The notes beneath the pieces were generated by a model, which was not told the DNA's origin, did not search any database, and saw nothing but the letters and a program-made list of their open reading frames with translations. From positions 141,047 to 205,046 of the forward strand of contig CAZDCG010000002.1 of the NCBI GenBank assembly GCA_964503955.1: 64,000 bases of DNA. Reading direction: 5' to 3'. Both the position numbers and the translations under genes were made by a program. Source of the DNA: an uncultured Gammaproteobacteria bacterium (GTDB lineage Bacteria; Patescibacteriota; Patescibacteriia; VMEV01; CAYQCH01). Below, piece after piece: positions 1 through 19,080 of this stretch. The first letter of the stretch is position 1. Each line of letters opens with the position of its first letter.

Positions 1-3000
1 AAAATGGCAATCCGATTGAAACCCCGGAAGAAATGTTTTACCGCATCGCCAATTTCATGGCGCAAGGAGATAAGAAATTCAATCCCAAAGCGGATGTTAC
101 CGATCTCACCGACAAGTTCTATCAGATGCTCGCCAAGCTTGAATTCGTGCCCGGCGGCCGCGCATTCTTTGAAGCTGGCAATGACCATACCGGACAGATG
201 GCGTCCTGCTTTGTTTTGCCGATTGAAGACAGCCTGGAAGCGATTTTTCAGACCATGAAAGACGCGGCGATCACGCAGCAGAATAATGGCGGAACAGGAT
301 TTAACTTTTCAAAAATCCGTCCAAAAGGAGACAGTGTCAAAGGCGTTCCAGGCGTAGCCGCGGGACCGGTGCATTACTTGCGCAGCTTTGACCAGGCATT
401 CAGCCAATTGCTGCAGGGAGGAAAGCGCCATGGCGGAAACATGGGCGTGCTCAATATTGATCATCCCGACATTGAGGAATTCATCAAGCTGAAGGATTCT
501 GGATCCGGCATCAAGAATTTCAATATCTCCGTTGGCGTAACCGCCAAGTTTATGGAAGCGGTGCGCGCAGACGCGAGCTGGGATCTGATCAATCCCCGCA
601 ATGGCGAAGCCGTGAAAACCGTGCAGGCGCGCTATCTCTTTGACATGATTACCCAGCGCGCCTGGGAATGCGCTGACCCCGGCATGATTTTCCTCGACCA
701 GGTTGCGGCGGGAAATAACAATGCCCATCTGTATGAAATGGTCGCGACCAATCCATGCGGAGAACAGCCGCTTGGCCCGTATGAATCCTGCAATCTTGGT
801 TCGGTTGTGCTTTCAAACCACGTCACACCGGCCGGGGAAGTAGACTGGCCAAAACTAACCCGCACCGCCAAGCTCGCCACACGTTTCATGGACAATATGA
901 TCGAGCTGAACAAATATCCGATTCCGGCGATCGACTATATGGTGCGCCAGACCCGCAAAATCGGCATCGGCGTGATGGGATTTGCCCAGATGCTCTATAA
1001 GCTTGGCATTGGCTATAACTCGGAAGAAGCCGTCAAGCTCATGGAAAAGATCATGAAGCATATCCATACGTCCGTGGAAGAAGAAAGTTCGAAGCTGGCT
1101 GAAGAGCGCGGCGTGTATCCAGCCTGGCAGGGAAGCCGCTGGGAACAGAAAGGCATTCAAATCCGCAACAGCCATTTAACAAGCATCGCGCCGACCGGAA
1201 CCATCTCCATGCTTGCCAATACCTCTTCCGGCATTGAACCCTATTTCAACCTTGTCACCATCCGCCGTTCGTTCTTTAACCAGAGCGGAGACAATTCTGC
1301 TGCCAAAGCGCAGGTGCTTCGCATTGTGGCTGAAGACTTTGAAAAAGTCGCGCGCGAACGTGGATTCTATTCAGACGAACTCATGGACCGCATCGCTGAA
1401 GAAGGAACGCTCCAGGGTTTTGATGAAATCCCGGAAGACGTAAAACGCGTCTTTGTAACCACGCATGATGTTGATTATCAATGGCATGTAAAGATCCAGG
1501 CTGCCGCGCAGAAATGGACCGACGCGGCCGTGTCTAAGACCGTGAATTTGCCGCATAATGCCAAAATCGAAGATGTTCGCAACGCATATATCCTGGCGTA
1601 TGAAACCGGCTGCAAAGGAATCACCATTTACCGTGACGGCTCAAAATCAGGCCAGGTATTAAACCTCGCCGAGAAAAAGGAAGCGAAAAAACCGGAAGCG
1701 GCTCAGCCAAGCCCTGCCGTGCAGATGCCTGTTATTCCCGAACCTGTTTCAGCGCCGGTTGCCGCTTCAGCTCCGCTCATCAAAGGCAGCGACTTAAACT
1801 CAGAAGCGTTTATTACCGACAATGCGTTGACAGTTCTTGAAAAGCGCGCGCTTCGTAAAGACGAACAGGGGAATGTGGTTGAAACCCCAGAAGACCTCTT
1901 CCGCCGCGTGGCAAAATTCGTGGCTGGTCCTGAGGCAGAATACGACGTGCCGGCTCCTCGCATTGCTGAAATCGAAGAACAGTTCTACCAGATGCTTTCC
2001 CGGCTTGAATTCATTGCCGGCCAGCCCTTGCGCAATTCCGACACGAACCTGACCATGTCCGCTTGTCTTGTTCTGCCGATTGAAGATCATATTGAAGGCA
2101 TCATGCAGACGATTTCTGAAAATGTCTTCGCGCATAAGTCAACCTGCGGAACCGGCATCAACTACTCAAAACTCCGCATGAAAGGCAGTGCGGTTGGAGC
2201 CGTCGGGCCGATTGCGGCGGGGCCTGTTCACTTCATGAAAGCGGTTTCCGTAGCGCAGAAGACGATTCAGACCAAGGGCGGACGCAGCCAGGGCAGCATG
2301 GGTATTCTCAATGTGGATCATCCTGACATCGAAGAATTCATCCGCGCCAAAGACAAAGAAGGGGAATTCGACAATATGAATATCTCCGTTGGCGCGACCG
2401 ACGCCTTCATGCGCGCGCTGCAGAATGACCAGGAATACGACATGGTTGATCCGGGTACCGGAAACGTGGCACGCCGCGTGCGCGCGAGAGAGATTTTCGA
2501 CCAGATCGCTGAGCATGCCTGGGTGAGCGGAGATCCGGGATTGATTTTCGTCGACCGCCTTGAAGCAGACAACCCGACGCCGCAGCTTGGCGTGCTGAAC
2601 GCGACCAATCCTTGCGGAGAACAGCCGCTCCTGCCGTATGAAACCTGCAATCTTGGTTCAATCGTGCTTTCCCGTATGGTCAAAGCCGACGCGCAGGGAA
2701 ATCCTGTTATCGACTGGGATCGCTTGGCGCATGTCGTCTACTACAGCGTGCGGTTCCTCGACAACACCATTGACGTAAACAATTTCCCATTGGCCAAAGT
2801 GGAACAGATGTCAAAAGGCACCCGCCGCATTGGACTTGGCGTAATGGGCTTTGCCGATCTGCTCATCAAGCTTGGCGTGCCGTATAACTCGTCTAAAGCC
2901 GTGGAATTGGCTGAAGACCTGATGAAGTTCATTAATGAAAAAGCGCATCAGGCAAGCGAACAGCTTGGAGAGGAAAAAGGATCGTTCCCGTACTTCGATA

Positions 3001-4343
3001 TTTCCGTCTGGCCTGAAAAGGGCGTGAAAGCGCGCCGCAATTCAGCTGTAACTACCATCGCGCCAACGGGGTATACCAGCATTGTGGCCAACTGTTCATC
3101 AGGCATTGAACCGATTTACGCGCTGGCATTCCGCCGCGAGAATTCCATGGGCGGAACCGACCAGTTCGAAACCAATTTCCTCTTCGAGAAAGTGGCGCGC
3201 GAACGCGGATTCTACACGCCTGAAATCATGGAACAGGTGGTTGAGCATGGCACGATCAAAGATATCGCCGGCATCCCGCAAGACGTCAAAGATATCTTTG
3301 TAACGGCCTTTGACACGACTCCTGAATGGCATATCCGTATCCAGGCGGCCTTCCAGAAATATACCGACAATGCCGTCTCCAAAACCATCAATTTCCCGAA
3401 TAACGCGACTGTTGAAGATATCCGCCGCGCGTATATTCTCGCTTATGAACTTGGCTGCAAGGGCGTAACCATTTTCCGCGACGGCAGCCGTGAAGAACAG
3501 GCTTTGCGTCTTGGAAAGAAAGATAAGGAAACACCTGCCGCGGAAATCAGTATCAGCGAAGAGCGCGTGGCCATCACCGAGCCGACCACTATTCATGAAG
3601 CGCGCCAGATTCTTTCCCGCGTGATTGAAAAACGCCCTCGTCCAACCGTTGTCGCCGGCAAAACCTACAAGAAGAAAACCGGCTACGGCGATATGTACGT
3701 GACCGTGAATGACGATATTGAAGGGCATCCATTCGAAGTCTTTGCCACCATCGGCAAAACCGGCGGCGTGTACGCGGCGAAATCTGAATCCATCTGCCGG
3801 CTTGTTTCTCTTGCCTTGCGTTCAGGCATTAAAGTGGAAGACGTGATCCAGCAGCTGCAGGGAATCCGCGGGCCGATGCCGATCTGGGATAATGGCGTGC
3901 AGGTATTCTCTATTGCGGACGCGATCGCGCAGGTCTTGCGCCAGCATGTGCAGGACGGCCAGGCGCAAATGAAGCTGTTTGAAGAGAAAAAAGAACCTGT
4001 CCAGAAAATCAATGTCACTGCTGAAGCAAAACCGCAGACGGAAGCAACTGAAGTTGAAGCCAAGCAGCCAAAGCAGACCTTGATGAACGCGGCAACAAAG
4101 GTGGATGAAAAACCGCGAGAAACCGTGACGGTCAGTATCGCGCAGGTGAAGGAAACCGTAACCGATGTTGTCTCTGCCACAACCAGCGCGCCAACACCGT
4201 CCGCGCAGACAAAGTCCGCAGCTCCAACGCAGAAGTATCAGGAAATGGGGATCTCTACACAATGTCCAGATTGCGGATATGGACTGGAGTTCTCTGAAGG
4301 GTGTCTGCTCTGTCGAGGGTGTGGGTACAGTAAATGTGGGTAG
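1..4343 (+). CDS. nrdJ: Adenosylcobalamin-dependent (class II) ribonucleotide reductase, 5'-partial. It is a fused tandem duplication of two complete NrdJ-like modules plus a Lys/Glu-rich tail and a C-terminal Cys4 zinc ribbon.
   Basis: The N-terminal motif of module 2 (ALTVLEKRALRKDEQGNVVETPEDLFRRVAKFVA) reappears at the window start in frame 3 as NGNPIETPEEMFYRIANFMA, so the gene begins just upstream of the window. Both modules carry the thiyl-radical loop NPCGEQPL and the redox pair (SCNLGS / TCNLGS), PIEDS/PIEDH, and a GPVHY/GPVHF segment. The C-terminal tail is CPDCGYGLEFSEGCLLCRGCGYSKCG. Stop is TAG at 4341-4343. Confidence 0.85.
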   Translation, partial: NGNPIETPEEMFYRIANFMAQGDKKFNPKADVTDLTDKFYQMLAKLEFVPGGRAFFEAGNDHTGQMASCFVLPIEDSLEAIFQTMKDAAITQQNNGGTGFNFSKIRPKGDSVKGVPGVAAGPVHYLRSFDQAFSQLLQGGKRHGGNMGVLNIDHPDIEEFIKLKDSGSGIKNFNISVGVTAKFMEAVRADASWDLINPRNGEAVKTVQARYLFDMITQRAWECADPGMIFLDQVAAGNNNAHLYEMVATNPCGEQPLGPYESCNLGSVVLSNHVTPAGEVDWPKLTRTAKLATRFMDNMIELNKYPIPAIDYMVRQTRKIGIGVMGFAQMLYKLGIGYNSEEAVKLMEKIMKHIHTSVEEESSKLAEERGVYPAWQGSRWEQKGIQIRNSHLTSIAPTGTISMLANTSSGIEPYFNLVTIRRSFFNQSGDNSAAKAQVLRIVAEDFEKVARERGFYSDELMDRIAEEGTLQGFDEIPEDVKRVFVTTHDVDYQWHVKIQAAAQKWTDAAVSKTVNLPHNAKIEDVRNAYILAYETGCKGITIYRDGSKSGQVLNLAEKKEAKKPEAAQPSPAVQMPVIPEPVSAPVAASAPLIKGSDLNSEAFITDNALTVLEKRALRKDEQGNVVETPEDLFRRVAKFVAGPEAEYDVPAPRIAEIEEQFYQMLSRLEFIAGQPLRNSDTNLTMSACLVLPIEDHIEGIMQTISENVFAHKSTCGTGINYSKLRMKGSAVGAVGPIAAGPVHFMKAVSVAQKTIQTKGGRSQGSMGILNVDHPDIEEFIRAKDKEGEFDNMNISVGATDAFMRALQNDQEYDMVDPGTGNVARRVRAREIFDQIAEHAWVSGDPGLIFVDRLEADNPTPQLGVLNATNPCGEQPLLPYETCNLGSIVLSRMVKADAQGNPVIDWDRLAHVVYYSVRFLDNTIDVNNFPLAKVEQMSKGTRRIGLGVMGFADLLIKLGVPYNSSKAVELAEDLMKFINEKAHQASEQLGEEKGSFPYFDISVWPEKGVKARRNSAVTTIAPTGYTSIVANCSSGIEPIYALAFRRENSMGGTDQFETNFLFEKVARERGFYTPEIMEQVVEHGTIKDIAGIPQDVKDIFVTAFDTTPEWHIRIQAAFQKYTDNAVSKTINFPNNATVEDIRRAYILAYELGCKGVTIFRDGSREEQALRLGKKDKETPAAEISISEERVAITEPTTIHEARQILSRVIEKRPRPTVVAGKTYKKKTGYGDMYVTVNDDIEGHPFEVFATIGKTGGVYAAKSESICRLVSLALRSGIKVEDVIQQLQGIRGPMPIWDNGVQVFSIADAIAQVLRQHVQDGQAQMKLFEEKKEPVQKINVTAEAKPQTEATEVEAKQPKQTLMNAATKVDEKPRETVTVSIAQVKETVTDVVSATTSAPTPSAQTKSAAPTQKYQEMGISTQCPDCGYGLEFSEGCLLCRGCGYSKCG

Positions 4344-6200: not shown

Positions 6201-6824
6201 ATGAGCAGGGGGGAGCTGTCCAAAGAGGAAAAAGAAAGACTCGTGCCCGTGCTTGAGCGCGCGGCGCGGTACGGTTTGCCGCTGCAGCTTCATTCTCCAG
6301 ATCCCAGGCAATTGCCGCGGCTTGATGACGTGGTTGAATGGATGAATAAAACCATCGAAATGCTCGAAAATGATTTGAAACGGGATCATCGCAAACGATT
6401 GCTGGAAAATATGAGCAGGGAGGAACAGGAGCGGCTGCTGGTGCTGTATCAGACCCCGGAGGACGAGCTTGCAAAAATCGGTCTGACAAAAGAAGAAGTC
6501 GACCATATGCTGCCTGAACTCGATCCAAGCAGTCTTGATGAAGCTGAGCTTGAAGATCTGATGACACGCAATGATCATGAGCGCGCAAGGCTTTTGCTGA
6601 AAACCGGCATGATTGATCCTTTCGATACATCGCCTTTGCCTAAACCCGAACAAAAAGACGAATATCTGGCGAAAATTTTTGAATTGGAACAAAAGTTTAC
6701 GGAAGATCGGCACGCGTTTAGCCAGGCGCTGCGTTTGCAAAACGAGCGCGGCCGCTGGTTTGGCCTTGGTCATGAAATGGGCAAGGAGTATTTAGAGCGA
6801 GTGAAAAAAGAGCTTGGAGAGTAG
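6201..6824 (+). CDS. Hypothetical charged (E/K/R/L-rich) protein. The start was chosen at the ATG that follows the RBS ctgaaggagcgg; the ORF extends upstream to 6147.
   Basis: Long ORF with a plausible RBS. No recognisable domain. The antisense ORF 6090..6773 has an implausible composition. Confidence 0.5.
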   Translation: MSRGELSKEEKERLVPVLERAARYGLPLQLHSPDPRQLPRLDDVVEWMNKTIEMLENDLKRDHRKRLLENMSREEQERLLVLYQTPEDELAKIGLTKEEVDHMLPELDPSSLDEAELEDLMTRNDHERARLLLKTGMIDPFDTSPLPKPEQKDEYLAKIFELEQKFTEDRHAFSQALRLQNERGRWFGLGHEMGKEYLERVKKELGE

Positions 6825-7688: not shown

Positions 7689-7979
7689 ATGCATCACCGC
7701 CGTTTTTATGTCTACATCATGACCAATAAGCCGCAAGGAGTTTTGTATATCGGAGTCACAAACGATATCGCGCGGCGGGTTTGGGAGCATCAACAAAAAA
7801 TCCACGATGGATTCACAGCCAGATATAATCTGGATAAGCTGGTGTATTGTGAAGAGATTCCATCTATTGAGGGGGCCATCATGAGAGAAAAGAGGCTGAA
7901 GAGATGGAATCGGGATTGGAAGATCAGCCTGATTGAAGATGTTAATCCAGAGTGGAAGGATCTGTCGAAGGAGTTTTAG
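7689..7979 (+). CDS. GIY-YIG nuclease family protein (small stand-alone URI-domain protein)
   Basis: FYVYIMTNKPQGVLYIGVTNDIARRVWEHQ is the canonical GIY...YIG...R...E core. 96 aa. Flanked by repeat B (upstream) and repeat A (downstream). Confidence 0.8.
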   Translation: MHHRRFYVYIMTNKPQGVLYIGVTNDIARRVWEHQQKIHDGFTARYNLDKLVYCEEIPSIEGAIMREKRLKRWNRDWKISLIEDVNPEWKDLSKEF

Positions 7980-8056: not shown

Positions 8057-8226
8057 AGAGGAAGAAGTATCCTACCCCTCCTCGTAGGAGGGGCAAGGGG
8101 TGGTATCTGGCAGTATGAATCTCTCGACAAGGGGGATGGAATGAGGAACTTTTTTCGTTGTGCGACAAGAAGTGGTACGCAGAGGGGCAAAACGCTATAA
8201 TAAGTCCTCAACATCCAGATAATTCT

Positions 8227-8796
8227 ATGTCCAAAAAAACGATCAACTACGGAGACGGAGCTGAAGCCTGGGGAAAGGTCCAGCTGTATACCGGCAAAGG
8301 GAAAGGGAAGACCACGGCGGCGCTTGGAACAGCTTTGCGCGCGCATGCAAACGGGAAAAAAGTGGCTTTTGTGTATTTTGACAAAGGAGGAACGCATTAT
8401 AGCGAGGCAAAGATTCTTGATGATCTTGGCATCGAGTATTATCGAACCGGTCTTGATCGCATCAATCCTGAAACAGGGCAATTTCGATTCGGTGTAACCG
8501 AAGAAGACAAAGCCGAAGGCAAGAGAGGACTCGACAAAGTCCGCGAGCTCATGGAGCGCGGCGATCTTGATGTGCTTGTTTGCGATGAAATCAATATCAG
8601 CGCGAGCCTTGGCATTATCAGCGAAGAGGACGTGCTTGAGCTGCTCAAGTTGAAAAAGCCCAAACTTGAATTGATCCTTACCGGACGCGACGCGCCGGCT
8701 TCGTTGGAAGAGGCGGCAGACCTCGTGACGGAAATGGCTCTGAAGAAGCATTATTTTTATAAGGGGGATCCCGCACGAGAAGGTTTGGACTATTAA
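8227..8796 (+). CDS. cobO: Cob(I)yrinic acid a,c-diamide / cob(I)alamin adenosyltransferase (CobA/CobO/BtuR family)
   Basis: WGKVQLYTGKGKGKTTAALGTALRAHANGKKVAFVYFDKGG is the P-loop and family signature. Start taken at MSKKT; the ORF extends to 8158. Confidence 0.85.
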   Translation: MSKKTINYGDGAEAWGKVQLYTGKGKGKTTAALGTALRAHANGKKVAFVYFDKGGTHYSEAKILDDLGIEYYRTGLDRINPETGQFRFGVTEEDKAEGKRGLDKVRELMERGDLDVLVCDEINISASLGIISEEDVLELLKLKKPKLELILTGRDAPASLEEAADLVTEMALKKHYFYKGDPAREGLDY

Positions 8797-8997
8797 GGAT
8801 GAGACTCCCGCTTGCTGCGCATCTTCCCTTGCTGCGCAAGAAAAGGTTTATCCGCGGGGGTGACGTGGTGGTGGCGATCCGACGAGGGAGGTTTCCGTTG
8901 AGAGGTTTTCCTACTTTAAAAATCTTCTCACCATCGTCATCCCCGCAAACAGAACTGTTCTGCCAAAGGCAGCTATAAAGCCACGCAAGCGGGGATC
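8793..8997. repeat. Composite repeat: element A copy 2 (8793-8866) plus element B copy 2 (8933-8997), forming a long imperfect hairpin 3' of cobO
   Basis: gcgggggtgacg at 8855-8866 can pair with cgtcatccccgc at 8936-8947. Sequence similarity to copies at 7612-7678 and 7980-8056. Confidence 0.6.
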
Positions 8998-9069
8998 CCA
9001 AAGTCATATAAGCGTTGTTAATAAATGTTCCCCTCCCCGCGTGGGGAGGGGGCTGGGGGAGGGCCAGCT

Positions 9070-9097
9070 TTGACATCCTCTATTTTTCTGCTAAGCT
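9070..9097 (+). promoter_or_regulatory. Sigma-70-like promoter (TTGACA, 16 nt, TAAGCT) upstream of the cobalamin riboswitch
   Basis: ttgaca at 9070-9075 and taagct at 9092-9097. Preceded by the hairpin cccctccccgcgtggggagggg at 9038-9059, which would terminate or insulate the upstream unit. Confidence 0.55.
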
Positions 9098-9109
9098 AGC
9101 TTCACCTTT

Positions 9110-9335
9110 ACAACCAGTCGTTTGGGGGAAGTCCGGTGAAAAACCGGCGCTGACCCGCAACAGTAAAGCCCCGTTTAAGGGGTTAAGCCTGGATACCCAA
9201 GCGATTGAATATGCGCAAACCTTCTTCGCGGAACGAGAAGGGAGCAACTGGTTTGATCTCGCTAGACGGGCATGCGCTCGTCTGACACTGGTCAAATCAC
9301 TTGAACCCCGTCGCTTCCGCGTCGGGGTTCTTTGC
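9110..9335 (+). promoter_or_regulatory. Cobalamin (B12) riboswitch with a terminator-type expression platform
   Basis: GGGAAGTCCGGTGAAAAACCGGCGCTGACCCGCAACAGTAA matches the conserved 5' core of the cobalamin riboswitch (GGGAA..GGUGaAAa.CCgGcGCuGaCCCGCaACaGUaA). A B12-box-like AAGCCTGGATACC lies at 9186-9198. A terminal hairpin aaccccgtcg...cgtcggggtt plus ctttg sits at 9304-9335, directly before the RBS aaaggaaaagccgATG of the lipoprotein gene. Confidence 0.8.
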
Positions 9336-9350
9336 TGAAAGGAAAAGCCG

Positions 9351-9806
9351 ATGGCTGAGCAGGAGAGAGGCGGCCTCAGCCGCCGTTCTGTTCTTCGGGT
9401 TCTGTTCTCGCTGCCCTTCGTTCTCTCGCTCAGCCAGCTCTTCGCCGGCTGCGGCGGAGGCGGCGGCGGCGGGGGTGGTGCTCCTCCGTCGTCTCCTCCG
9501 CCCTCGGGCGGAGGCGGTGGCGGCGGGAACGGAGGCGGTGGTGGCGGCGGAACCGTCCAGACCACGACCGTTGGGGCCGCCACCCGCGCGCAGGGTGCTG
9601 TGATGGCGGATCCGACTTGGCAGGGCGCCTTCGGTGGCGACCTCTTCACCTCCGTTCAGGCGGGGGGCGGCCAGGTCAGCGGTGATCTGAACTATGGTCC
9701 GTTCCAGACGCCGGCAGCGGATCAGGCAACCATCAACAAGAGCAGCACGGTCACCTGGACCGTGGCCGGCACGGGATCTGGTAGTCCCGTGAGCTTTCAG
9801 GCCTAG
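9351..9806 (+). CDS. Tat/lipoprotein-signal surface protein with a long poly-Gly/Pro linker. It is the first gene under the B12 riboswitch and is a candidate cobalamin-binding lipoprotein.
   Basis: SRRSVLRV twin-arginine-like motif. Lipobox LFAGC. Linker GGGGGGGGGAPPSSPPPSGGGGGGGNGGGGGGG encoded by (GGN)n. Confidence 0.65.
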   Translation: MAEQERGGLSRRSVLRVLFSLPFVLSLSQLFAGCGGGGGGGGGAPPSSPPPSGGGGGGGNGGGGGGGTVQTTTVGAATRAQGAVMADPTWQGAFGGDLFTSVQAGGGQVSGDLNYGPFQTPAADQATINKSSTVTWTVAGTGSGSPVSFQA

Positions 9807-9817
9807 AGGAGGGCATC

Positions 9818-10339
9818 ATGTACGCGTGCAAGCATCTGGATGCCTCCCGCGGAGGCAGTCTTGTCGACGATCCGTGCGAGCCCAAGCTGCTCTCCTGCGT
9901 GGGCTGCTGTGCAAGCCTGAGCCGCGAGGAGACGGCGTTCAACCCGGACGCGGATGACATCAACCGCGTCCTGGGTGTCAGCCCGGGCTGGAGCCTGGGC
10001 GACGTGATCACGCCGGCCTGGTGCGAGCAGCACCCTGAGCTTGGCATCATGCCCGGACTCAGCCAGACCGGCATCCCCACGATCTTTCAGGACGGTCAGG
10101 CGGTCGGTTCCATCTACATCGTGCGCTGGACCCACGACGGTCCCACCCTCGTTTTCCCGGGCGCTTCGCGCAGCTGGACAAAGTACGTCATCCACCCGGA
10201 CGACCTCTACGTCCTGCTCGGGCACAAGATCGAGCCGCTGATGTTCCAGAGGGCCGGGACGCTCTGGGACTTCATGACCCGTTCGCTGCAGGGCGGCAAG
10301 CTGGACCTCACGGTCCGCAGCGCGCTGCGTCTGCAGTAG
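9818..10339 (+). CDS. Hypothetical Cys-rich protein (second gene of the riboswitch operon)
   Basis: RBS ctagaggagggcatcATG. N-terminal CEPKLLSCVGCCAS. High GC. The antisense ORF 9803..10387 is rejected as a compositional artefact. Confidence 0.55.
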   Translation: MYACKHLDASRGGSLVDDPCEPKLLSCVGCCASLSREETAFNPDADDINRVLGVSPGWSLGDVITPAWCEQHPELGIMPGLSQTGIPTIFQDGQAVGSIYIVRWTHDGPTLVFPGASRSWTKYVIHPDDLYVLLGHKIEPLMFQRAGTLWDFMTRSLQGGKLDLTVRSALRLQ

Positions 10340-10473
10340 TTCCTTGAACAGGCAAGGGGAGCGCTTCCTTCGCGGAAGCCTCCCCAAGCCTCATCCCTAC
10401 GGTTCGCCGCAAAAGGTTGAATAACGAAAGATGTCCACGAATGGATGTCTGCCGTTTCTTAATCTTTGCGCCT

Positions 10474-12366
10474 ATGAAAAAGATCATCGCTTTGTTCACG
10501 GGAATCGCGGTTTTTGCTGTTGCGATTTCTGCAACCATCGCGCAAACAAATACACAGACGATCAGCTACCTTGAGGGAACGGATCAGTCAAGCCCTTGGA
10601 CATTGATGGCGCTGCGCAGCGCCGGACGCATCCCAAGCGCTTCTTCTATCAACGTGAACACCTCAGACGCGCTTGAAACCGCCAAAACCATTCTGGCGGT
10701 TACGGCGGCAAATCAGGATCCGTCCAATTTCCGCGGTTATAATCTGATCAGTTTGCTCGACAGTCATCGCCGCAATAATCAGATCGGCAACCCTTCGCTC
10801 CTCAATGACGATTTCTGGGGCATTATCGCCTACTATGCGGCTGGTATTTCCGCGTCAGACAGCCGCATCCAGGATGCAAAGAATTTCATTATCAATAATC
10901 AGGCCTCAGGAGGAGGGTGGAGCTATGCGCCCGGCCAGGCCGTTGATAGCAATGATACGGCCATCGCGCTTATCGCTTTGATGCGCGCGGGCGTTTCTCC
11001 TGCGGATACGGCCGTGCAAAACGGGCTCAATTTCTTGCGCAATTCCCAGAACAATGACGGAGGTTTTGCCATCAATCCAGGATTTGAATCAGACGGAGCT
11101 TCTACGGCTTGGACAATCAGCGCTCTGCAGGCAACTGGAATCAATCCGTCAAGCTGGCAGAAAAACGGCAATCAGCCTTTTACATTCCTTGAAAGCTTGC
11201 GGGCCGCCAATGGTTCCTATAAATGGAAAGCGCATGAAGTGACCGGCCAGCCGGCAATTACTTCCTATGCTGTGATCGCGATCAATGGGACAAGCTATCC
11301 TGTCGCGCGTTCATTTGCCTCAAATCCGCAGCCGCAAAACCCTCAGCCGCAGCAGCCGTTGCCAACAAACGGCACACCGGTATCGGTCAGCTTCCGTTTT
11401 GAAGGAAGTTTGGGGCAGTTCTGCCAGGGAACAACCAGCGCGGCTACTCCGCTTGACGTGATCAGACAGGCATCAAGCCTCTGTAATTTCACCTATGAGC
11501 TGCAAAATACAGGCATGGGCGTATATGTTAAACGCGTCGGCTTTGACAGCGCGAGCGGCGTGAACGGCTGGCTGTATCTCATCAATAACCGCCAGCCAAG
11601 TCTTGGCGCTTCACAGTATCAGCTGCGATCAGGTGATGACGTGACCTGGTATTTCGGTGAATTCGACTGGCAGCCGCTGCGCCTGATCAGCATGAATCAG
11701 ACGGAAACAAGTTCAGGCAAGCGCGTGCAGTTGCGCGTGGAAGCGTATAATGGCAGCAATTGGTATCCTGTCAGTCAGGCGACCATCCTCTCTGATCGTA
11801 TCCGCATCAATACGAATACGAACGGGGAAGTGGCATTCGATCTTGGCTCTGGAACGCATAACCTGTACGCGACCAAGCTTGATTACCTGCGCAGTCCGAA
11901 ATTGCAGATTTATGTTGCAGGATCAGCAAGCCAGCCGCCAACCTATCAGGACACAGCCAATCGCCATGTCCCGTTACGCGCGGACGTGAGCCAACCGTAT
12001 TACTACAATCCGCCCGTCTACAATCAGCCTCCAAGCGCGCCGGCAATTTCCTTTGATCTGAAAGTCAGCGGAGCAGAACAGGACCGCATCATCTTTGGCA
12101 ACGTGGCTCCCGGATCTTCAGTAACGAGGGATGTCTACTTAAGAAATACCAGCACCCGCCGTTTGGATTTCTCCGCGACTGTTCAGGGCGACCAGATTTT
12201 TACCGATCATATCCTTATCGATGGCTATAAGTGGTCTTCTTTCTGGCAGCCGGTCTTCCCTGGAAATTCCGTTGATGTATCTGTTGAACTGCGCGTGCCA
12301 AAAACCTATGCCGGAAGCGGTACCAAAACAGGGGAATTGATCTTCTGGGCGAAGGCAGCGAGATAA
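10474..12366 (+). CDS. Secreted or surface protein with prenyltransferase/terpenoid-cyclase-type alpha/alpha-toroid repeats plus a C-terminal DUF4430-like beta domain. This is a transcobalamin/intrinsic-factor-like architecture and a putative B12-binding protein.
   Basis: Signal peptide MKKIIALFTGIAVFAVAISATIAQT. Repeats NNQASGGGWSY and SQNNDGGFAI (QxxDGGF/GGW toroid motifs). C-terminal SGVNGWLYLINNRQPSLGASQYQLRSGDDVTWYF resembles the DUF4430 W.Y.VN...G...Y.L..GD.V.W motif. Confidence 0.6.
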   Translation: MKKIIALFTGIAVFAVAISATIAQTNTQTISYLEGTDQSSPWTLMALRSAGRIPSASSINVNTSDALETAKTILAVTAANQDPSNFRGYNLISLLDSHRRNNQIGNPSLLNDDFWGIIAYYAAGISASDSRIQDAKNFIINNQASGGGWSYAPGQAVDSNDTAIALIALMRAGVSPADTAVQNGLNFLRNSQNNDGGFAINPGFESDGASTAWTISALQATGINPSSWQKNGNQPFTFLESLRAANGSYKWKAHEVTGQPAITSYAVIAINGTSYPVARSFASNPQPQNPQPQQPLPTNGTPVSVSFRFEGSLGQFCQGTTSAATPLDVIRQASSLCNFTYELQNTGMGVYVKRVGFDSASGVNGWLYLINNRQPSLGASQYQLRSGDDVTWYFGEFDWQPLRLISMNQTETSSGKRVQLRVEAYNGSNWYPVSQATILSDRIRINTNTNGEVAFDLGSGTHNLYATKLDYLRSPKLQIYVAGSASQPPTYQDTANRHVPLRADVSQPYYYNPPVYNQPPSAPAISFDLKVSGAEQDRIIFGNVAPGSSVTRDVYLRNTSTRRLDFSATVQGDQIFTDHILIDGYKWSSFWQPVFPGNSVDVSVELRVPKTYAGSGTKTGELIFWAKAAR

Positions 12367-12370
12367 ATAA

Positions 12371-12470
12371 CAGACGTTGCCAAATGTTTGCAAATGCGCC
12401 AAACGTTCCCAAACTGACTTGAACAAGGTCTGATAACAATTGGCAATATCTGGCTCGTTTGGCGCGTTTC
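12371..12470. repeat. Palindromic intergenic element (CCAAATG / GCCAAACG / GGCTCGTTTGGC modules)
   Basis: gacgttgccaaatgtttgcaaatgcgccaaacgttcccaaactgac...ggctcgtttggcgcg. A related element sits at 29038..29134 (ccaaacgagcc ... ggctcgtttggc). Confidence 0.5.
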
Positions 12471-12481
12471 CTATCACAACT

Positions 12482-13474
12482 ATGTTTAAATATCTCATCA
12501 TCTTCATCCTCGTTCTTGCGTCTTTGTTTCCTTCCATGGGACAGGCCGCTGCCATCGGTGTGCATCCTGAAGCATTTGCCGTGCATCAGCAGGCAGACGA
12601 ACGGCTTGAGCTGAGTTTTGTCGTCTACAATACCGGCGAAGAACCGGCCATCTATACCGTTTCCGCGGATGACTATGAGCGGCTGCTGGCCTTTGACCTG
12701 CGTCGTTTCCGTCTTGAACCGGGGGAGCATCGTACGCTTCGTCTTACCACGGGGCCATTTCCTCCAGGAGAGTTTACTACCTTTCTTTCGGTGATGGCCC
12801 AGGACGTCGAAAACCGCGATACGGCAAAGACCGGAGTGAAAGTGCCTGTTCATGTGACTTCACAGGGAGCCAGGGAAGGATTTTTCCAGATTGAAGCGCT
12901 GGTTGTTTCTCTGATCTTTCTAGCCTTATTCCTGCTGATCGGTTCATTCTGGGTGCAAAAGCGGCTTTCTCCCGCGGCGCGTTTGGCAGACGCGGCGGAA
13001 GAAACGCTCTTATCGCATTCGTCATATTCCTGGTTTAAGCATTACCGCAAGCGCCATGTGCTGATTCTTGTCAGCTTCATCGCGATCACGCTTGCGCTCT
13101 TCCTCCTGGTACTTAGCTATGCGATTCCGTATTCATCAACCTTATTGTCGCATCGATCAGAACAGGAAGCAGCCCAGGTGCTGGTGGAAATCCGCACGCC
13201 GGATCAAACGTACGTGGCAAATGCCAAATCGGACCAGCCGCTTAGCGCCTTTACCGCCTTGCAGCAGGTCGCGCAGGAAACCGGAATCGCGCTTCGCTAT
13301 GATCCGCCAAATGAATTCGGTGTTCTTGTCACAGAAGTTGCCGGTTATAAAAACGGACAGGACGGCAAATACTGGGTGTATGAACGAAACGGCAAAAAGG
13401 TGCCTGTGGCCGCTGATAAACAGCAGCTTGAAACAGGCGATCTGCTTCTCTGGAAATTCGTCGTGCCGGAATAA
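12482..13474 (+). CDS. Membrane-anchored protein with an N-terminal Ig-like/DUF916-type ectodomain, two TM helices and a C-terminal DUF4430-like domain (putative B12-binding)
   Basis: Signal peptide MFKYLIIFILVLASLFPSMGQAAA. C-terminal YKNGQDGKYWVYERNGKKVPVAADKQQLETGDLLLWKF fits the DUF4430 motif. Confidence 0.55.
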   Translation: MFKYLIIFILVLASLFPSMGQAAAIGVHPEAFAVHQQADERLELSFVVYNTGEEPAIYTVSADDYERLLAFDLRRFRLEPGEHRTLRLTTGPFPPGEFTTFLSVMAQDVENRDTAKTGVKVPVHVTSQGAREGFFQIEALVVSLIFLALFLLIGSFWVQKRLSPAARLADAAEETLLSHSSYSWFKHYRKRHVLILVSFIAITLALFLLVLSYAIPYSSTLLSHRSEQEAAQVLVEIRTPDQTYVANAKSDQPLSAFTALQQVAQETGIALRYDPPNEFGVLVTEVAGYKNGQDGKYWVYERNGKKVPVAADKQQLETGDLLLWKFVVPE

Positions 13475-13517
13475 AGGCAAGGTTTGCTATAATGTCTCCT
13501 TAACATGGAGAGCCCAT

Positions 13518-13590
13518 TACCCGTTAACTCATCAACCCGTTAACTCATTAACCCATCAACTCGTTAACACGTTAACCCGTAAACAACGTT
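13518..13590. repeat. Tandem array of the palindromic hexamer GTTAAC (about 8-14-bp period) immediately upstream of the 13592 gene
   Basis: cccgttaactcatcaacccgttaactcattaacccatcaactcgttaacacgttaacccgtaaac. Confidence 0.6.
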
Positions 13591-13591
13591 T

Positions 13592-14140
13592 ATGCAGAAC
13601 CGTCTTCCCTTCCTCTTTGCAACGCTCTTTTTCTTCGCGGCCGCGTTTTTATCGCGTTTCGCCGATATTTCACCAAACTTCACGGCTGTTGGAGCGGTCG
13701 CGCTCTTGTCCGGATACTATTTCGCGCGCTCAAAGTACGCTTTTCTGATGCCGCTTGGCATTATGCTGGTGAGCGATCTGATTCTTGGTTTTTATCACTG
13801 GCAGGTGATGGTTGCTGTTTATGCGTCGTTTCTTGTGTACTGGGGAGCGGGGCGCGTTGCGCGTGCTTCAGGCGAACGACTCGCTTTGTTACCCGCCGTG
13901 CTTTTTGGCTCGTTAGCGCACTTTATTATTACAAACTTCGCGGTCTGGGCGTTTACAGGCATGTATGAACCAACAACTGCTGGACTTCTGCAGTCATATC
14001 TGCTTGCGATCCCATTCTATAAATGGGCGCTCTTTGGCGACATGGTTTACTTATCTGTGATCTGTGCTATAGTGGAAGCAACGAGATTTGCGCTCATTAG
14101 CAAGCGCTCTCGTTTTTCTTTTCTGCTTGCTAACTCTTAA
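13592..14140 (+). CDS. Polytopic membrane protein (5-6 TM). Speculatively an ECF-type substrate-capture (S) component for the B12 locus.
   Basis: Hydrophobic segments throughout. Position directly after the DUF4430 genes. No sequence motif I can tie to a family. Confidence 0.35.
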   Translation: MQNRLPFLFATLFFFAAAFLSRFADISPNFTAVGAVALLSGYYFARSKYAFLMPLGIMLVSDLILGFYHWQVMVAVYASFLVYWGAGRVARASGERLALLPAVLFGSLAHFIITNFAVWAFTGMYEPTTAGLLQSYLLAIPFYKWALFGDMVYLSVICAIVEATRFALISKRSRFSFLLANS

Positions 14141-14164
14141 TCCATAGAACCTATGGAAGAGCAA

Positions 14165-14323
14165 ATGATGGGAACATGTGTCGCTTGCGGCATGGAAAAT
14201 GTTGCCTTAAATGAAGAAGGAAAATGCGCAAATTGCGCAGCAACTTCTCAGGAAATGCCTGACCAGGGCGCTGCCGAACAAACACCGGCAGAAGGCGGTT
14301 CAGAAGAACAGCCTCAAGCGTAA
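14165..14323 (+). CDS. Small (52 aa) zinc-ribbon-like protein: CxxC...CxxC plus an acidic tail
   Basis: MMGTCVACGMENVALNEEGKCANCAATSQEM... It is below the ORF-track size cutoff. It is followed by a perfect terminator hairpin gagcctcgg-aattgtt-ccgaggctc-tttt at 14343-14372. Confidence 0.4.
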   Translation: MMGTCVACGMENVALNEEGKCANCAATSQEMPDQGAAEQTPAEGGSEEQPQA

Positions 14324-14342
14324 CCCGCGCAAACAGACAGAT

Positions 14343-14372
14343 AGAGCCTCGGAATTGTTCCGAGGCTCTTTT
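14343..14372 (+). terminator. Intrinsic terminator
   Basis: 9-bp perfect stem gagcctcgg/ccgaggctc followed by tttt. Confidence 0.6.
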
Positions 14373-14384
14373 GTAGGAAATACT

Positions 14385-14636
14385 ATGAAAGCATTATTTC
14401 ACACGTCCGGCTACTATCGCGTGAAAGTCATTCCAAATCAGCCGCAAGCGGAATTTCGCGGAACTATGGGTGACGGCACGATAAAAATCGCTCTTACCGA
14501 GGCGCCGGAGAAGGGGAAAGCGAATAAAGAACTGATTGCGTTTCTGGCTGATCAGCTTGGAATTCGTAAAGAATCGATCACAATCTCAAGCGGTCTGACG
14601 AGCAGGATCAAGATTCTTTCCGTATCTTTGGAGTAA
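14385..14636 (+). CDS. DUF167 / YggU family protein
   Basis: MKALFHTSGYYRVKVIPNQPQAEFRGTMGDGTIKIALTEAPEKGKANKELIAFLADQLGIRKESITISSG is typical of the YggU family. RBS gtaggaaatactATG. Confidence 0.7.
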   Translation: MKALFHTSGYYRVKVIPNQPQAEFRGTMGDGTIKIALTEAPEKGKANKELIAFLADQLGIRKESITISSGLTSRIKILSVSLE

Positions 14637-14823
14637 GGAGTGTTCTTTTTTGACTGCACTTTGCTATTGAAGCCGATGCACCCGGGGTCCGGGGCGATCG
14701 TTCTTCTGAGAACGAGTCGAACGGTAGGTGCTCGCAAGAAGGAGTCGATCGCCCCGGCGGTTTAGGCGCCACCCTTTGCCGACAAAGGGTGGCAGAGAAT
14801 ACTGATCACAACAAAGAGGTTGA

Positions 14824-16107: not shown

Positions 16108-19080
16108 ATGCCGGTGAAAAAAACAACGTCAAAAAAAACCAAAGCAGCAAAACCGAAAAAATCATCCGCCACAAAGAAGCGGAAGATTTCTGCTGTGAAA
16201 CCGGCGTCAAAGAAAACAACTGCCAAGAAAGCACCGGTCAAAAAGAAGACCAAACCTGCTGCAAAGAAAGCCGCGCTTGCTCGCAAAGAATCGATCAAAC
16301 CGCGCGAGATCAAGCATGCGCATGCGTTTGACGTGCATCAAAAACAGCAAGGCTATCAACGCTCCATTCCCGCTGCCAAACCAGGTGAAGCATTTGAAAT
16401 CGTCAAGAAATTTTCGTTTCCAACCGCGCTTTCCCAGGTTCGCAGCCGCGTTGAACGAGAGCAGCCTTCCGCAACCATGCCGGCCGAGCCATCGCATCGC
16501 ATTGTTGCTCAGCAGATGCCGGAACGGAAACTTTCTCCGTATGTTTTAGATCTCAAACGCGGATTAACCATCATCCAGGCGCACCCGTCTTCGCAAACGG
16601 CAAAGAAACAGCCTCCAAAACTTCAGGAACCGTTTGATCTATTTCGCGAGCAGCCAACCACCTTTGCTCAGAGAATGCGGGCACGGCTCAGTTCGCTGAT
16701 GGCACCGCTGCGCAGGCAAAAGCAAATCAACTTTGTGCCCCTTGACCACAAGTATTTGCCGGGAAGCGCGCTAAAACGGCAGGTGCGTATGTTGAAATGG
16801 AGGGGGACCGGCCTTATTCGTCCGCTTTTTGCTCCATTGCATAAATTGCAGGAAAATAGGCGACAGAAAACGTTGCGATTGCCGTCAAGCTATGGCCAGC
16901 GTTCCATTCAGCCGATCATGAAAACGACACGGTCCGGCCAGCCGATCGCGGTTCGCCATCTTTCAGCAACGCTCGCATCACTGCGCAAAAAACGCGAGCA
17001 GTCCATTATCAACTCCGTTACGGAGCTTTCTTCCGTGATTGCCAAGCCGGCGCGCGCGCCATTATTCAGCCAGCTTTCTTTTGCTAAGGCCGCGGTCCCA
17101 TTCGCCGCATTGGCTATGGTTGTCGCTCTTCCTTTCGGTCTATCATCCATTTCCGAAGCGTTGACCCAGGCGCAGGGTGAAGTATTCGGGGCGACAAATT
17201 CGGCCGTGCGAACCTTGCAGCAGGCGGGGGCAAATGCCCGTTCCATGAATTTTTTGGCGGCAAGCAGCAAATTCTCAGAAGCGGGACAGGCATTCTCCGC
17301 GGCTGGCGCGCTCGTGCAAAATCAGTACGGTAAAACAGCCAAGGTGCTTTCTGTGATGCCGGTGATTGGCAAGAAACTTGATGCCGCGCAGGATTTGCTC
17401 GATGCCGGCAGCCTGCTTTCTTCCGCGGCAAATTTATTATCGCAAGGAGTGGCGTCCTTTACCGATGGCCAGCACTTTTTAAGCGAACAGGCTGCCACCT
17501 ATAAGCTTGAATACCTCTTTGTGCGTCTTCAGGAAGCAAAACCGGCTATCAAACAGGCCGCAGGGTTGCTTGCCGGGATTGATCCGTCTATCTTGCCCGA
17601 TGAAATGCGTCCTGATGTTGAGCGGCTGCAGCAGGCCCTTCCGGAGGTGAATCGCCAGTTTGACCAATTCGAATCTTTGGCGGCTCCTCTCCTTGCATTC
17701 CTTGGGCATGACCGCATGGAGCGGCATTTGATTCTATTCCAGAATAATACGGAATTGCGCGCGACCGGAGGATTCATGGGGTCCCTTGCGCTTGTCGATA
17801 TTGACCGGGGAGAAATTAAAAATATCGAAATCCCTGGAGGCGGGCCATATGATTTTCAAGGATCTCTCTTTGAAAATATCAAAGCGCCGCGCGCCTTGCA
17901 GCTCATCAACCCGCGGCTTGAATTGCAGGACGCAAATTGGTTTTTTGACTGGCCTACAAGCGCGCGAAAAGTAATGTCGCTTTACGAAAAGGCCGGCGGC
18001 CCAAGCGTTGATTCTGTGATTGCCATCAACACCAATGTTTTGGCTGCTTTGCTTGAATTCGTCGGTCCGGTCTATCTTGCTGACTATGAAAAAGAAATCA
18101 CTGCTGAAAACTTCCGTGAGATCCTGCAAACGCATGTTGAATTTGAATACGACAAACAGCTGAATCAGCCAAAAAAGATCATCGCCGATTTAACGCCGGT
18201 TCTGCTTGAGCGTGTCAAAGAACTTGAAACAGAAAAATACCTCGAGCTTGCGGGCGTGCTTTCAAAGCTTCTGGCACAGCGCGATGTTTTGATCTACCAC
18301 ATGGATGAGGAAGTTCAGGCTGCATTTTCTCAGTATGGCTGGGCTGGTGAAGTGGTTGATGCCGATACGGATTACCTGGCCGTGGTTCATACCAATCTTG
18401 CGGGCGGAAAAACCGACGGCGTGATCAACGACCGCTTCAACTTATCTGTCCATGTCTCCGCAAACGGCATGCTCAAGCATACCTTGACCATTGAACGCGA
18501 ACATACCGGCGTGAAGGGAACGCCGCTTGTGGGGGTGCGTAATGTCGATTATCTGCGCGTTTACGTTCCATACGGCAGCCAATTGATCTCAGCGGAAGGT
18601 TTTGAAACTCCACCAGCGGAATTGTTTGAATTGCCCGGCATTGATTGGAAAGAGGATCCCGATTTGGCCGCTTCCGAGCAGGCGTATCAGCCGCATCCGT
18701 CCGGAGCGGAAATCTATACGGAGTCAGGAAAAACGGTCTTTGCCCATTGGCTTCAGGTTGATCCGGGAACAACCGGCCGCGCCGTACTTGTTTATGAAAC
18801 GCCAAAGCTGATCAGTGACATTGAAATTCCACAGAAGGAGGCTTCCTGGACAGACTGGGTTATCGGGACAGAAAGAGAAACACGCCGAATCCGCCCATAT
18901 CAACTGTATTGGCAAAAACAGCCGGGTGCCTGGGATCCGGAATTGAATATTACGCTGAATTTCCCGCAGCAATGGCAGCTGCAAGCGTCAAGCGAATATA
19001 TGGCTCAGCAGGGAACAGGAACCTGGAAAACATCGGCTGTCATGAAAGGAGATGCTTTGTTCAGCTTCCTCTTCTATTGA
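16108..19080 (+). CDS. DUF4012-family large membrane-anchored protein with a Lys/Ala/Pro-rich histone-H1-like N-terminal tail
   Basis: First ~75 aa are KKTTSKKTKAAKPKKSSATKKRK... One TM follows, then LILFQNNTELRATGGFMGSLALVDIDRGEI (DUF4012-like). Confidence 0.6.
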   Translation: MPVKKTTSKKTKAAKPKKSSATKKRKISAVKPASKKTTAKKAPVKKKTKPAAKKAALARKESIKPREIKHAHAFDVHQKQQGYQRSIPAAKPGEAFEIVKKFSFPTALSQVRSRVEREQPSATMPAEPSHRIVAQQMPERKLSPYVLDLKRGLTIIQAHPSSQTAKKQPPKLQEPFDLFREQPTTFAQRMRARLSSLMAPLRRQKQINFVPLDHKYLPGSALKRQVRMLKWRGTGLIRPLFAPLHKLQENRRQKTLRLPSSYGQRSIQPIMKTTRSGQPIAVRHLSATLASLRKKREQSIINSVTELSSVIAKPARAPLFSQLSFAKAAVPFAALAMVVALPFGLSSISEALTQAQGEVFGATNSAVRTLQQAGANARSMNFLAASSKFSEAGQAFSAAGALVQNQYGKTAKVLSVMPVIGKKLDAAQDLLDAGSLLSSAANLLSQGVASFTDGQHFLSEQAATYKLEYLFVRLQEAKPAIKQAAGLLAGIDPSILPDEMRPDVERLQQALPEVNRQFDQFESLAAPLLAFLGHDRMERHLILFQNNTELRATGGFMGSLALVDIDRGEIKNIEIPGGGPYDFQGSLFENIKAPRALQLINPRLELQDANWFFDWPTSARKVMSLYEKAGGPSVDSVIAINTNVLAALLEFVGPVYLADYEKEITAENFREILQTHVEFEYDKQLNQPKKIIADLTPVLLERVKELETEKYLELAGVLSKLLAQRDVLIYHMDEEVQAAFSQYGWAGEVVDADTDYLAVVHTNLAGGKTDGVINDRFNLSVHVSANGMLKHTLTIEREHTGVKGTPLVGVRNVDYLRVYVPYGSQLISAEGFETPPAELFELPGIDWKEDPDLAASEQAYQPHPSGAEIYTESGKTVFAHWLQVDPGTTGRAVLVYETPKLISDIEIPQKEASWTDWVIGTERETRRIRPYQLYWQKQPGAWDPELNITLNFPQQWQLQASSEYMAQQGTGTWKTSAVMKGDALFSFLFY

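Follow-up and report, generated by a model that had tools for sequence, protein, structure and literature searches.

The 64-kb window that we analyzed (64,000 nucleotides of contig CAZDCG010000002.1, assembly GCA_964503955.1) carries a run of five plus-strand genes behind an adenosylcobalamin (AdoCbl) riboswitch, and these genes probably form an AdoCbl-repressed operon for corrinoid acquisition in a bacterium of the Patescibacteria, or candidate phyla radiation (CPR), with a Gram-positive-type envelope. In order, they encode a lipoprotein and a 173-amino-acid (aa) protein, which together make up a high-GC accessory cassette, a 630-aa secreted transcobalamin-like protein, a 330-aa membrane-anchored fusion protein, and a six-helix membrane protein of the family DUF6580. 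The strongest argument that this module handles B12 comes from the conservation of the riboswitch together with the fold match of the 630-aa protein; RNA family, domain content, and gene order, with their conservation, are likewise shown. Our confidence in the individual steps of the mechanism is much lower than our confidence in the operon as a whole. To place the locus in context, we identified 218 relatives of the 630-aa protein among GTDB species genomes and fetched the loci around 80 of them for comparison. Open reading frames (ORFs) in these loci were called and clustered, and domains were mapped with hidden Markov models built from the window proteins, domain-level models being used to tell the immunoglobulin (Ig)-like, transmembrane (TM) partner described below apart from DUF4430 proteins.

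The AdoCbl (cobalamin) riboswitch aptamer lies on the plus strand at 9100-9249, where it matches the family RF01482 (AdoCbl, clan CL00101) over its full length (1-149) with 53.6 bits (gathering score, 50; E 5e-7). The aptamer includes a 3' CUUCUUCG...CGAGAAGG hairpin and is the single riboswitch found by Rfam in the 64 kb. The original prediction had named a cobalamin riboswitch and proposed a check of the RF00174 type, and a match from the cobalamin clan is indeed present. Because most patescibacterial riboswitches escape Rfam at its gathering score, we built our own covariance model, R1, from 15 aligned riboswitch cores located by a fuzzy sequence pattern, and used Rfam at E-value thresholds as a cross-check of R1 sites. 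In this alignment the core, GGUGAAAAnCC...GCUGACCCGCAACAGUAA...AAGCCUGG, is kept across relatives. R1 gives 84.8 bits at 9111-9212 and no second match in the window.

Across the related loci, an R1 core stands on the strand of the gene in 69 of 80 (E <= 2e-5), and all 72 listed R1 sites in those 69 loci share that strand, with ~120 nt as the median distance to the ORF start. Eleven loci were negative, four of which lack upstream DNA. From 93 kb of unrelated loci the model returned only two sites, both of them true, and Rfam supports several R1 sites at threshold or slightly below it, with sub-threshold cobalamin matches coinciding with R1 coordinates in L064, L012, and L036. The riboswitch of the closest relative, L001, reaches 50.8 bits with R1 and is missed by Rfam at E <= 1; in that aptamer an insertion replaces the GGUGAAAAnCC hairpin. 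The riboswitch is a family trait, and its control is near-universal across related loci. One locus, L037, has a second riboswitch on the opposite strand (6524-6641, minus), ahead of a divergent stand-alone SLBB gene, which is the only minus-strand R1 match; two riboswitches per locus also occur in L004, L029, and L070.

The expression platform occupies 9250-9350 (plus strand). It contains two hairpins, one long and the other (9303-9330) terminator-like with a U-rich tail that extends to 9337, as well as a purine-rich ribosome-binding site, AAAGGAAAAG, that precedes the ATG at 9351. The minimum free energy (MFE) fold of 9100-9352 has -104.5 kcal/mol (z = -5.5) and includes the terminator-like hairpin GAACCCCGUCGC-UUCC-GCGUCGGGGUUC followed by UUUGCUG (9303-9337). 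The terminator predicted ahead of the genes survives in part: the hairpin is there, but its U-tract is weak and a terminator scan flags only part of it. In L001 a textbook strong terminator stands at the equivalent place. The segment GACACUGGUCAA(A)UCAC is shared by the window (9281-9300) and L001 (384-404) despite diverged flanks; it is complementary to part of the P1 5' strand (ACCAGUC) and therefore may be the switching element of the platform. Upstream of the aptamer, a possible sigma-70-type promoter can be read from the sequence at 9070-9098 (plus strand; TTGACA, 17 nt, TAAGCT), with a perfect TTGACA at 9070, a -10 element that matches at only 3 of 6 positions, and the same TTGACA-N17-TAAnCT layout in L001. 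A promoter scan of 8700-14800 did not report this site and found 3 promoters against 2.9 by shuffle, so the suggestion that the riboswitch has a promoter of its own is not supported above chance.

The third gene of the run (10474-12366, plus strand) encodes the 630-aa secreted transcobalamin-like protein, which we characterized with Pfam, an AF2 model, Foldseek, and the family alignment. A hydrophobic N-terminal signal, evident in the hydropathy profile (signal peptide, residues 1-23), is followed by an alpha/alpha toroid (~25-283), an SLBB/DUF4430 domain (~300-398), a further beta domain (~399-482), and a C-terminal Ig-like domain of the ASH/PapD type (~525-630). DUF4430 and toroid-repeat homology had both been predicted, and both were matched by Pfam (DUF4430, 34.3 bits, cutoff 23.8; Prenyltrans, 27.3 bits, cutoff 26.5) and by profile searches. 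The AF2 model, made from a 21-sequence family alignment, has a mean predicted local distance difference test (pLDDT) score of 82 and shows a 12-helix toroid, a disordered linker, a beta-grasp domain, and two more beta domains. When this model was compared with all solved structures by Foldseek, the 15 best matches were all transcobalamin, intrinsic factor, or haptocorrin (E 5e-13 to 9e-10), spanning both domains over ~430 aligned columns with TM-scores of ~0.5 normalized on the target. Prenyltransferase beta subunits and squalene-hopene cyclase came next, at E 1e-6 or worse. All database relatives are from Patescibacteria and are annotated just as "DUF4430 domain-containing protein."

As modeled, the 630-aa protein thus has the two-domain architecture of transcobalamin, a toroid and then a beta-grasp domain, and its beta domain is homologous to that of transcobalamin, which the family profile matches at E 1.2e-5. 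By sequence, the toroid resembles terpene and squalene cyclases, and present evidence does not justify treating it as orthologous to the transcobalamin alpha domain. Since sequence homology is limited to the beta domain, we describe the protein as an analogue, not an orthologue, of transcobalamin. The idea of a full bacterial transcobalamin analogue is accordingly sustained by the structural matches in the PDB, which are the best available over both domains, but not by the squalene-cyclase-like sequence of the toroid.

The fourth gene (12482-13474, plus strand) encodes a 330-aa protein, analyzed by Pfam and hydropathy, with a signal peptide, an Ig-like ectodomain, a TM hairpin (~134-160 and ~192-220), and a C-terminal, extracellular SLBB/DUF4430 domain (~255-328; DUF4430, 36.4 bits). 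It had been described as a second membrane-anchored DUF4430 protein, and while the domain and the TM segments bear this out, the description misses that the protein is a fusion of two usually separate genes. The Ig-like/TM and TM/SLBB halves occur as two genes in 36 related loci but form a single protein (~330 aa) in the window, L001, L028, and L029; this fusion accounts for the TM hairpin in the middle of the protein. A small protein that combines an Ig-like ectodomain with a TM anchor follows the transcobalamin-like gene in 78 of the 80 loci, and a TM-anchored SLBB/DUF4430 protein of ~140-160 aa is found in 39.

The last gene (13592-14140, plus strand) encodes the 182-aa DUF6580 protein (Pfam, 127.7 bits), a candidate corrinoid translocator. 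Its AF2 model is a six-helix bundle (pLDDT 92.5), in keeping with the polytopic membrane protein predicted at this position, and by hydropathy it is the sole polytopic membrane protein of the operon. DUF6580 occurs in 27 of the 80 loci, after a small SLBB gene each time and never without one. NCBI labels one member "DUF6580 family putative transport protein," and our literature search found no publication on the family. Only 1 of 41 members touches the Pfam family ECF_trnsprt (PF12822, E 1e-3), and the family has no conserved Cys or His able to act as an axial ligand.

We also examined nine genomic contexts of DUF6580 outside Patescibacteria. Two contain a DUF4430 gene followed by DUF6580 (L083 and L091). 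Two operons (L086/87 and L092) run from an RF00174 riboswitch through a TonB-dependent receptor and a PP-loop protein to DUF6580, beside FecCD/ABC genes, and in L094 DUF6580 lies 1-4 kb from a riboswitch-TonB-receptor operon whose riboswitch scores 113 bits. The PP-loop ATPase-like gene (Pfam Diphthami_syn_2) between the TonB-dependent receptor and DUF6580 is located at 4312-5004 in L086 and at 4315-5004 in L092. A B12-related role for DUF6580 is well supported by this gene context, and the link between the family and B12 appears to be new; that the protein moves its ligand across the membrane is something we infer. With more doubt than conviction, we put forward DUF6580 as a possible, so far unrecognized family of corrinoid transporters, six-helix and S-component-like, that would act without a dedicated energy-coupling factor (ECF) module and as an obligate pair with a tethered SLBB/DUF4430 receptor.

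The neighborhood supplies a consumer of B12 and an enzyme that adenosylates corrinoids, the two genes that the original prediction had placed nearby. At 33-4343 (plus strand) lies an AdoCbl-dependent ribonucleotide reductase, NrdJ (NF006417, 1722 bits; TIGR02504, 1267 bits; also matched by Pfam). Its ORF of 1436 aa comprises two complete NrdJ units, one after the other, residues 1-556 (TIGR02504) and 591-1436 (NF006417), joined by a Pro/Ala-rich linker with no stop codon between them, and the second unit contains the C-terminal TSCPD domain; NrdJ in related loci is 770-1160 aa long. A CobO/BtuR-type ATP:corrinoid adenosyltransferase is encoded at 8158-8796 (plus strand; PF02572, 170.9 bits). 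Because this gene is upstream of the riboswitch, it is not under riboswitch control here, and its link to the operon is functional. NrdJ and CobO each flank 17 of the 80 loci and NrdR flanks 10, with at least one of the three in 28, and in several loci CobO is inserted between operon genes. Among window ORFs of at least 120 aa, Pfam scans revealed no cob/cbi, ECF, or Btu genes, in agreement with the earlier remark that no corrin biosynthesis genes are visible, and neither a CbiO-like ATPase nor a CbiQ-like membrane protein was seen in the window or among recurrent neighbors in the 80 loci.

Taken as a whole, the operon suggests a relay for corrinoids, most likely serving to scavenge B12 that the host may be unable to make, in which we infer ligand binding, docking between Ig-like domains, the order of hand-off, and transport by DUF6580. 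When intracellular AdoCbl is low, transcription would read through the terminator. The secreted 630-aa protein would then clamp a corrinoid between its toroid and SLBB domains in the fashion of transcobalamin, and the carrier is probably held at the surface by docking of its C-terminal Ig-like domain to the Ig-like ectodomain of the 330-aa protein. The tethered second SLBB domain of the 330-aa protein would carry the ligand to the membrane, and DUF6580 would pass it across. The lipoprotein and the soluble 173-aa partner appear to be additions of this lineage only. Inside the cell, CobO would adenosylate the corrinoid, and the resulting AdoCbl would both serve NrdJ and shut the operon.

The riboswitch, profile, and structure checks, together with the riboswitches of 69 of the 80 loci, all favor the B12-capture interpretation given to this operon at the outset; a number of observations weigh against it. 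A study of Lactobacillus sakei suggests haem as the ligand of split transcobalamin-like proteins instead of B12 (bioRxiv 10.1101/864751). Within the toroid, the family profile of the 630-aa protein is closest to squalene-hopene cyclase repeats (E 1e-26); it leaves the transcobalamin alpha domain unmatched, and Pfam PF01122 gives no match at E <= 0.1. The root mean square deviation from transcobalamin is ~10 A, and the orientation of domains in the AF2 model therefore differs from that of transcobalamin. Foldseek returned no significant solved match for DUF6580, with RibU alone above a TM-score of 0.5 (0.53-0.56, E 4.4), and the DUF6580 family profile had 0 matches at E <= 10 among PDB sequences, CbrT and BtuM included; a search of PDB sequences with the single protein was equally empty. 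A visible link to B12 is absent in 4 of the 9 DUF6580 contexts outside Patescibacteria, and BtuCD-like genes accompany DUF6580 in L086 and L092, so the protein need not be the translocator. Finally, the intergenic gaps of 115-135 nt and a weak terminator-like hairpin at 10429-10450 speak against taking a single transcript for granted.

One alternative is that the captured ligand is another tetrapyrrole or corrinoid precursor (haem, cobinamide, or other cobamides) and not cobalamin itself, which we consider unlikely. Haem has been modeled into the split alpha/beta transcobalamin-like proteins of an L. sakei ECF operon (bioRxiv 10.1101/864751), cobinamide is also carried by ECF-CbrT (PMC5997447), and archaeal SLBB members may scavenge a different metabolite (PMC1796856). 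However, an AdoCbl-class riboswitch in 69 of 80 loci and the synteny with NrdJ and CobO tie the operon to the corrinoid pool, not to haem, and uptake of cobinamide or other cobamides would itself count as scavenging of corrinoids. We are equally skeptical that B12 is sequestered by the surface proteins, or that these serve contact with host cells, instead of supplying an uptake pathway, with DUF6580 as an anchor or processing factor. Patescibacteria are often episymbionts, DUF6580 is carried by only 27 of the 80 loci and elsewhere coexists with BtuCD-like genes, and the window ORFs of at least 120 aa include neither an ATPase nor an ECF module. Yet NrdJ needs intracellular B12, CobO is present, feedback repression by AdoCbl is the usual logic of uptake genes, and the operon has no other polytopic membrane protein than DUF6580.

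It is also quite improbable that the riboswitch governs the lipoprotein/173-aa cassette only, with the transcobalamin-like genes transcribed separately and the apparent operon a mere juxtaposition. The cassette does have a foreign-looking GC content, and it is separated from the 630-aa gene by a 134-nt gap that contains the weak hairpin at 10429-10450. Against this, ~60 relatives without the cassette have the riboswitch straight ahead of the transcobalamin-like gene (median, ~120 nt), L001 shares the order of riboswitch, cassette, and gene, and the promoter scan found none in the 10340-10473 gap. An enzymatic role for the 630-aa protein outside the cell, as a terpenoid cyclase or an enzyme of the prenyltransferase type, as the barely passing Prenyltrans score and the profile match to squalene-hopene cyclase repeats (E 1e-26) might suggest, is very unlikely and was rejected: NCBIfam cyclase models give 23-31 bits against cutoffs of 323-851 (e.g., 30.8 versus 851) with no full-length enzyme-family match, the protein has a single toroid of ~260 residues fused to an SLBB domain, the fold search favors B12 carriers by six orders of magnitude, and the riboswitch and NrdJ/CobO context favor B12 handling.

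The first two genes of the operon differ from the rest in both composition and distribution. The 151-aa accessory lipoprotein (9351-9806, plus strand) has the twin-arginine (RR) signal SRRSVL, the lipobox FAGC, and the Gly/Pro tether that the original prediction had read in it, followed by a ~70-aa domain with GDLNYxPFQ. Its family is small, with ~10 representatives among 1.8 billion proteins, all of which have the RR signal, lipobox, Gly-rich tether, and GDLNYxPFQ domain. The accessory 173-aa protein (9818-10339, plus strand) is always paired with the lipoprotein; its hydropathy profile shows neither a signal peptide, a TM segment, nor a hydrophobic segment, and a word-indexed database search returned only the protein itself, its homologues in the same position being known from the locus comparison (L001 and L096). 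Neither protein matches a Pfam family. GC content at third codon positions (GC3) is 0.87 in the 173-aa ORF, compared to 0.47 at position 2, which supports coding in that frame; the Cys richness that had been ascribed to the protein is not conserved in its homologues. Antisense ORFs in the high-GC island were considered as genes and rejected, as GC3 and homologues favor the plus-strand genes.

The island (window 9300-10350) has a GC content of 64-72%, versus ~50% elsewhere, and the pair stands in the same order behind the riboswitch in L001 (400-1500; 56-60% versus 36-40% in the flanks) and L096 (547-1387; 65-70% versus 53-57%). The cassette is found behind the riboswitch in three lineages only, its proteins are ~35-50% identical between genomes, and in all three its GC content is 10-20 points above that of the flanks. 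Persistence of high GC at such divergence is not explained by a simple old transfer and amelioration, and an assembly chimera was rejected as its source, since the island is present in two independent assemblies. Other lineages have, in the first operon position, other small RR-signal proteins, some with a lipobox, or a toroid protein of ~330 aa that stands alone and has a riboswitch of its own (L056, L065, L066, L071, L073, L076; L011, 6289-6861; L004, 5667-6665; L029, 2728-3717). First-position genes are accessories that differ between lineages within the B12 regulon, and the repeated appearance of RR signals among their products suggests that folded proteins of this regulon are exported by the twin-arginine translocation (Tat) route. 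Elsewhere in the window, a DUF167/YggU-family gene (14211-14636, plus strand) begins 70 nt after DUF6580 and is kept there only in the closest relatives, L001 and L028; a 990-aa DUF4012 protein is encoded at 16108-19080 and a GIY-YIG nuclease gene lies at 7689-7979, both of which, like the names that homologues bear in the databases, are consistent with the window coming from Patescibacteria.

Much of this organization was anticipated. Burroughs, Balaji, Iyer, and Aravind, who defined the SLBB superfamily in 2007, described bacterial surface proteins that join SLBB and an alpha/alpha toroid in one chain, carry additional Ig domains, and have SLBB paralogues encoded in their operon; noted CbiO/CbiQ neighbors and hosts unable to make B12; predicted that the proteins scavenge B12; and proposed Gram-positive bacteria as the source of the transcobalamin-like proteins of animals (PMC1796856). 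The features of such a protein, a signal peptide, DUF4430, an alpha/alpha toroid, and their fusion in one chain, are present in the 630-aa protein, and the Ig-fold domains and second SLBB gene in the operon are also shared, the toroid being N-terminal in some of the published proteins. The published operons come from Firmicutes, planctomycetes, and archaea and contain CbiO/CbiQ (ECF), whereas the present ones are from Patescibacteria and have no ECF or ABC genes in view nearby. Unlike the published operons, they have a conserved Ig-like TM partner and DUF6580, and riboswitch control is documented in 69 loci. Given the published prediction, the locus is a well-supported new example and not a new principle. 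What it adds is the setting in Patescibacteria, the near-universal riboswitch control, the Ig-like TM partner, the high-GC cassette, and an obligate pairing of SLBB with DUF6580 where the published operons have an ECF module.

Comparison with better-known B12 systems places the operon among several relatives and analogues. Mammalian transcobalamin, intrinsic factor, and haptocorrin (2BB5, 4ZRP, 2PMV, and 4KKI) are the best structural matches, with a beta domain homologous in sequence, but the 630-aa protein is bacterial, riboswitch-regulated, and extended by two C-terminal beta domains, and membrane partners stand where the mammalian carriers have the receptors CD320 or cubilin. The same gene logic, a B12-dependent ribonucleotide reductase, an adenosyltransferase, a small membrane substrate-binding protein, and an accessory gene, is found in the nrdJ-cbrS-cbrT-pduO cluster of Lactobacillus delbrueckii, which includes ECF-CbrT (PMC5997447), and in L. 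rhamnosus a DUF4430 gene adjoins rtpR, which encodes a B12-dependent ribonucleotide reductase. DUF6580 differs in having no sequence similarity to any solved chain, CbrT included, and no ECF module in view. BtuM, a solitary B12 transporter resembling an ECF S component (PMC6072759), is, like DUF6580, a small six-helix protein in B12-regulated loci without an ECF module, sometimes beside a TonB-dependent receptor. DUF6580 nevertheless has no detectable sequence relation to BtuM and lacks a conserved axial Cys or His, and its similarity to the S-component fold is weak (RibU, TM-score 0.53). BtuG and BtuH of Bacteroides are surface-exposed, high-affinity corrinoid-binding lipoproteins from riboswitch-controlled loci that work with BtuB in the outer membrane; they are functional analogues, with unrelated folds (beta-propeller and others).

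Patescibacteria have minimal genomes and obtain cofactors from others. Our literature search found no paper combining Patescibacteria, cobalamin, and riboswitch and no description of how these bacteria get B12 for class II ribonucleotide reductase. For a specialist the present locus will hold no surprise, but it is useful for the physiology of Patescibacteria and for DUF6580, as it gives a testable function to this family and to bacterial DUF4430 proteins. It would also provide the first tractable bacterial set of toroid-SLBB proteins with which to examine the bacterial origin of animal B12 carriers proposed in 2007. If DUF6580 does act as a transporter, the operon would encode every member of a relay, from the carrier through the tethered receptor to the transporter, comparable to the path that leads from transcobalamin to its receptor in mammals, and the high-GC cassette of Tat lipoprotein and 173-aa protein would be a further mobile module of the B12 regulon. 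Together with its 218 relatives, the locus offers a concrete, testable answer to the question of how Patescibacteria are supplied with B12: a transcobalamin-like capture protein under the control of a riboswitch.

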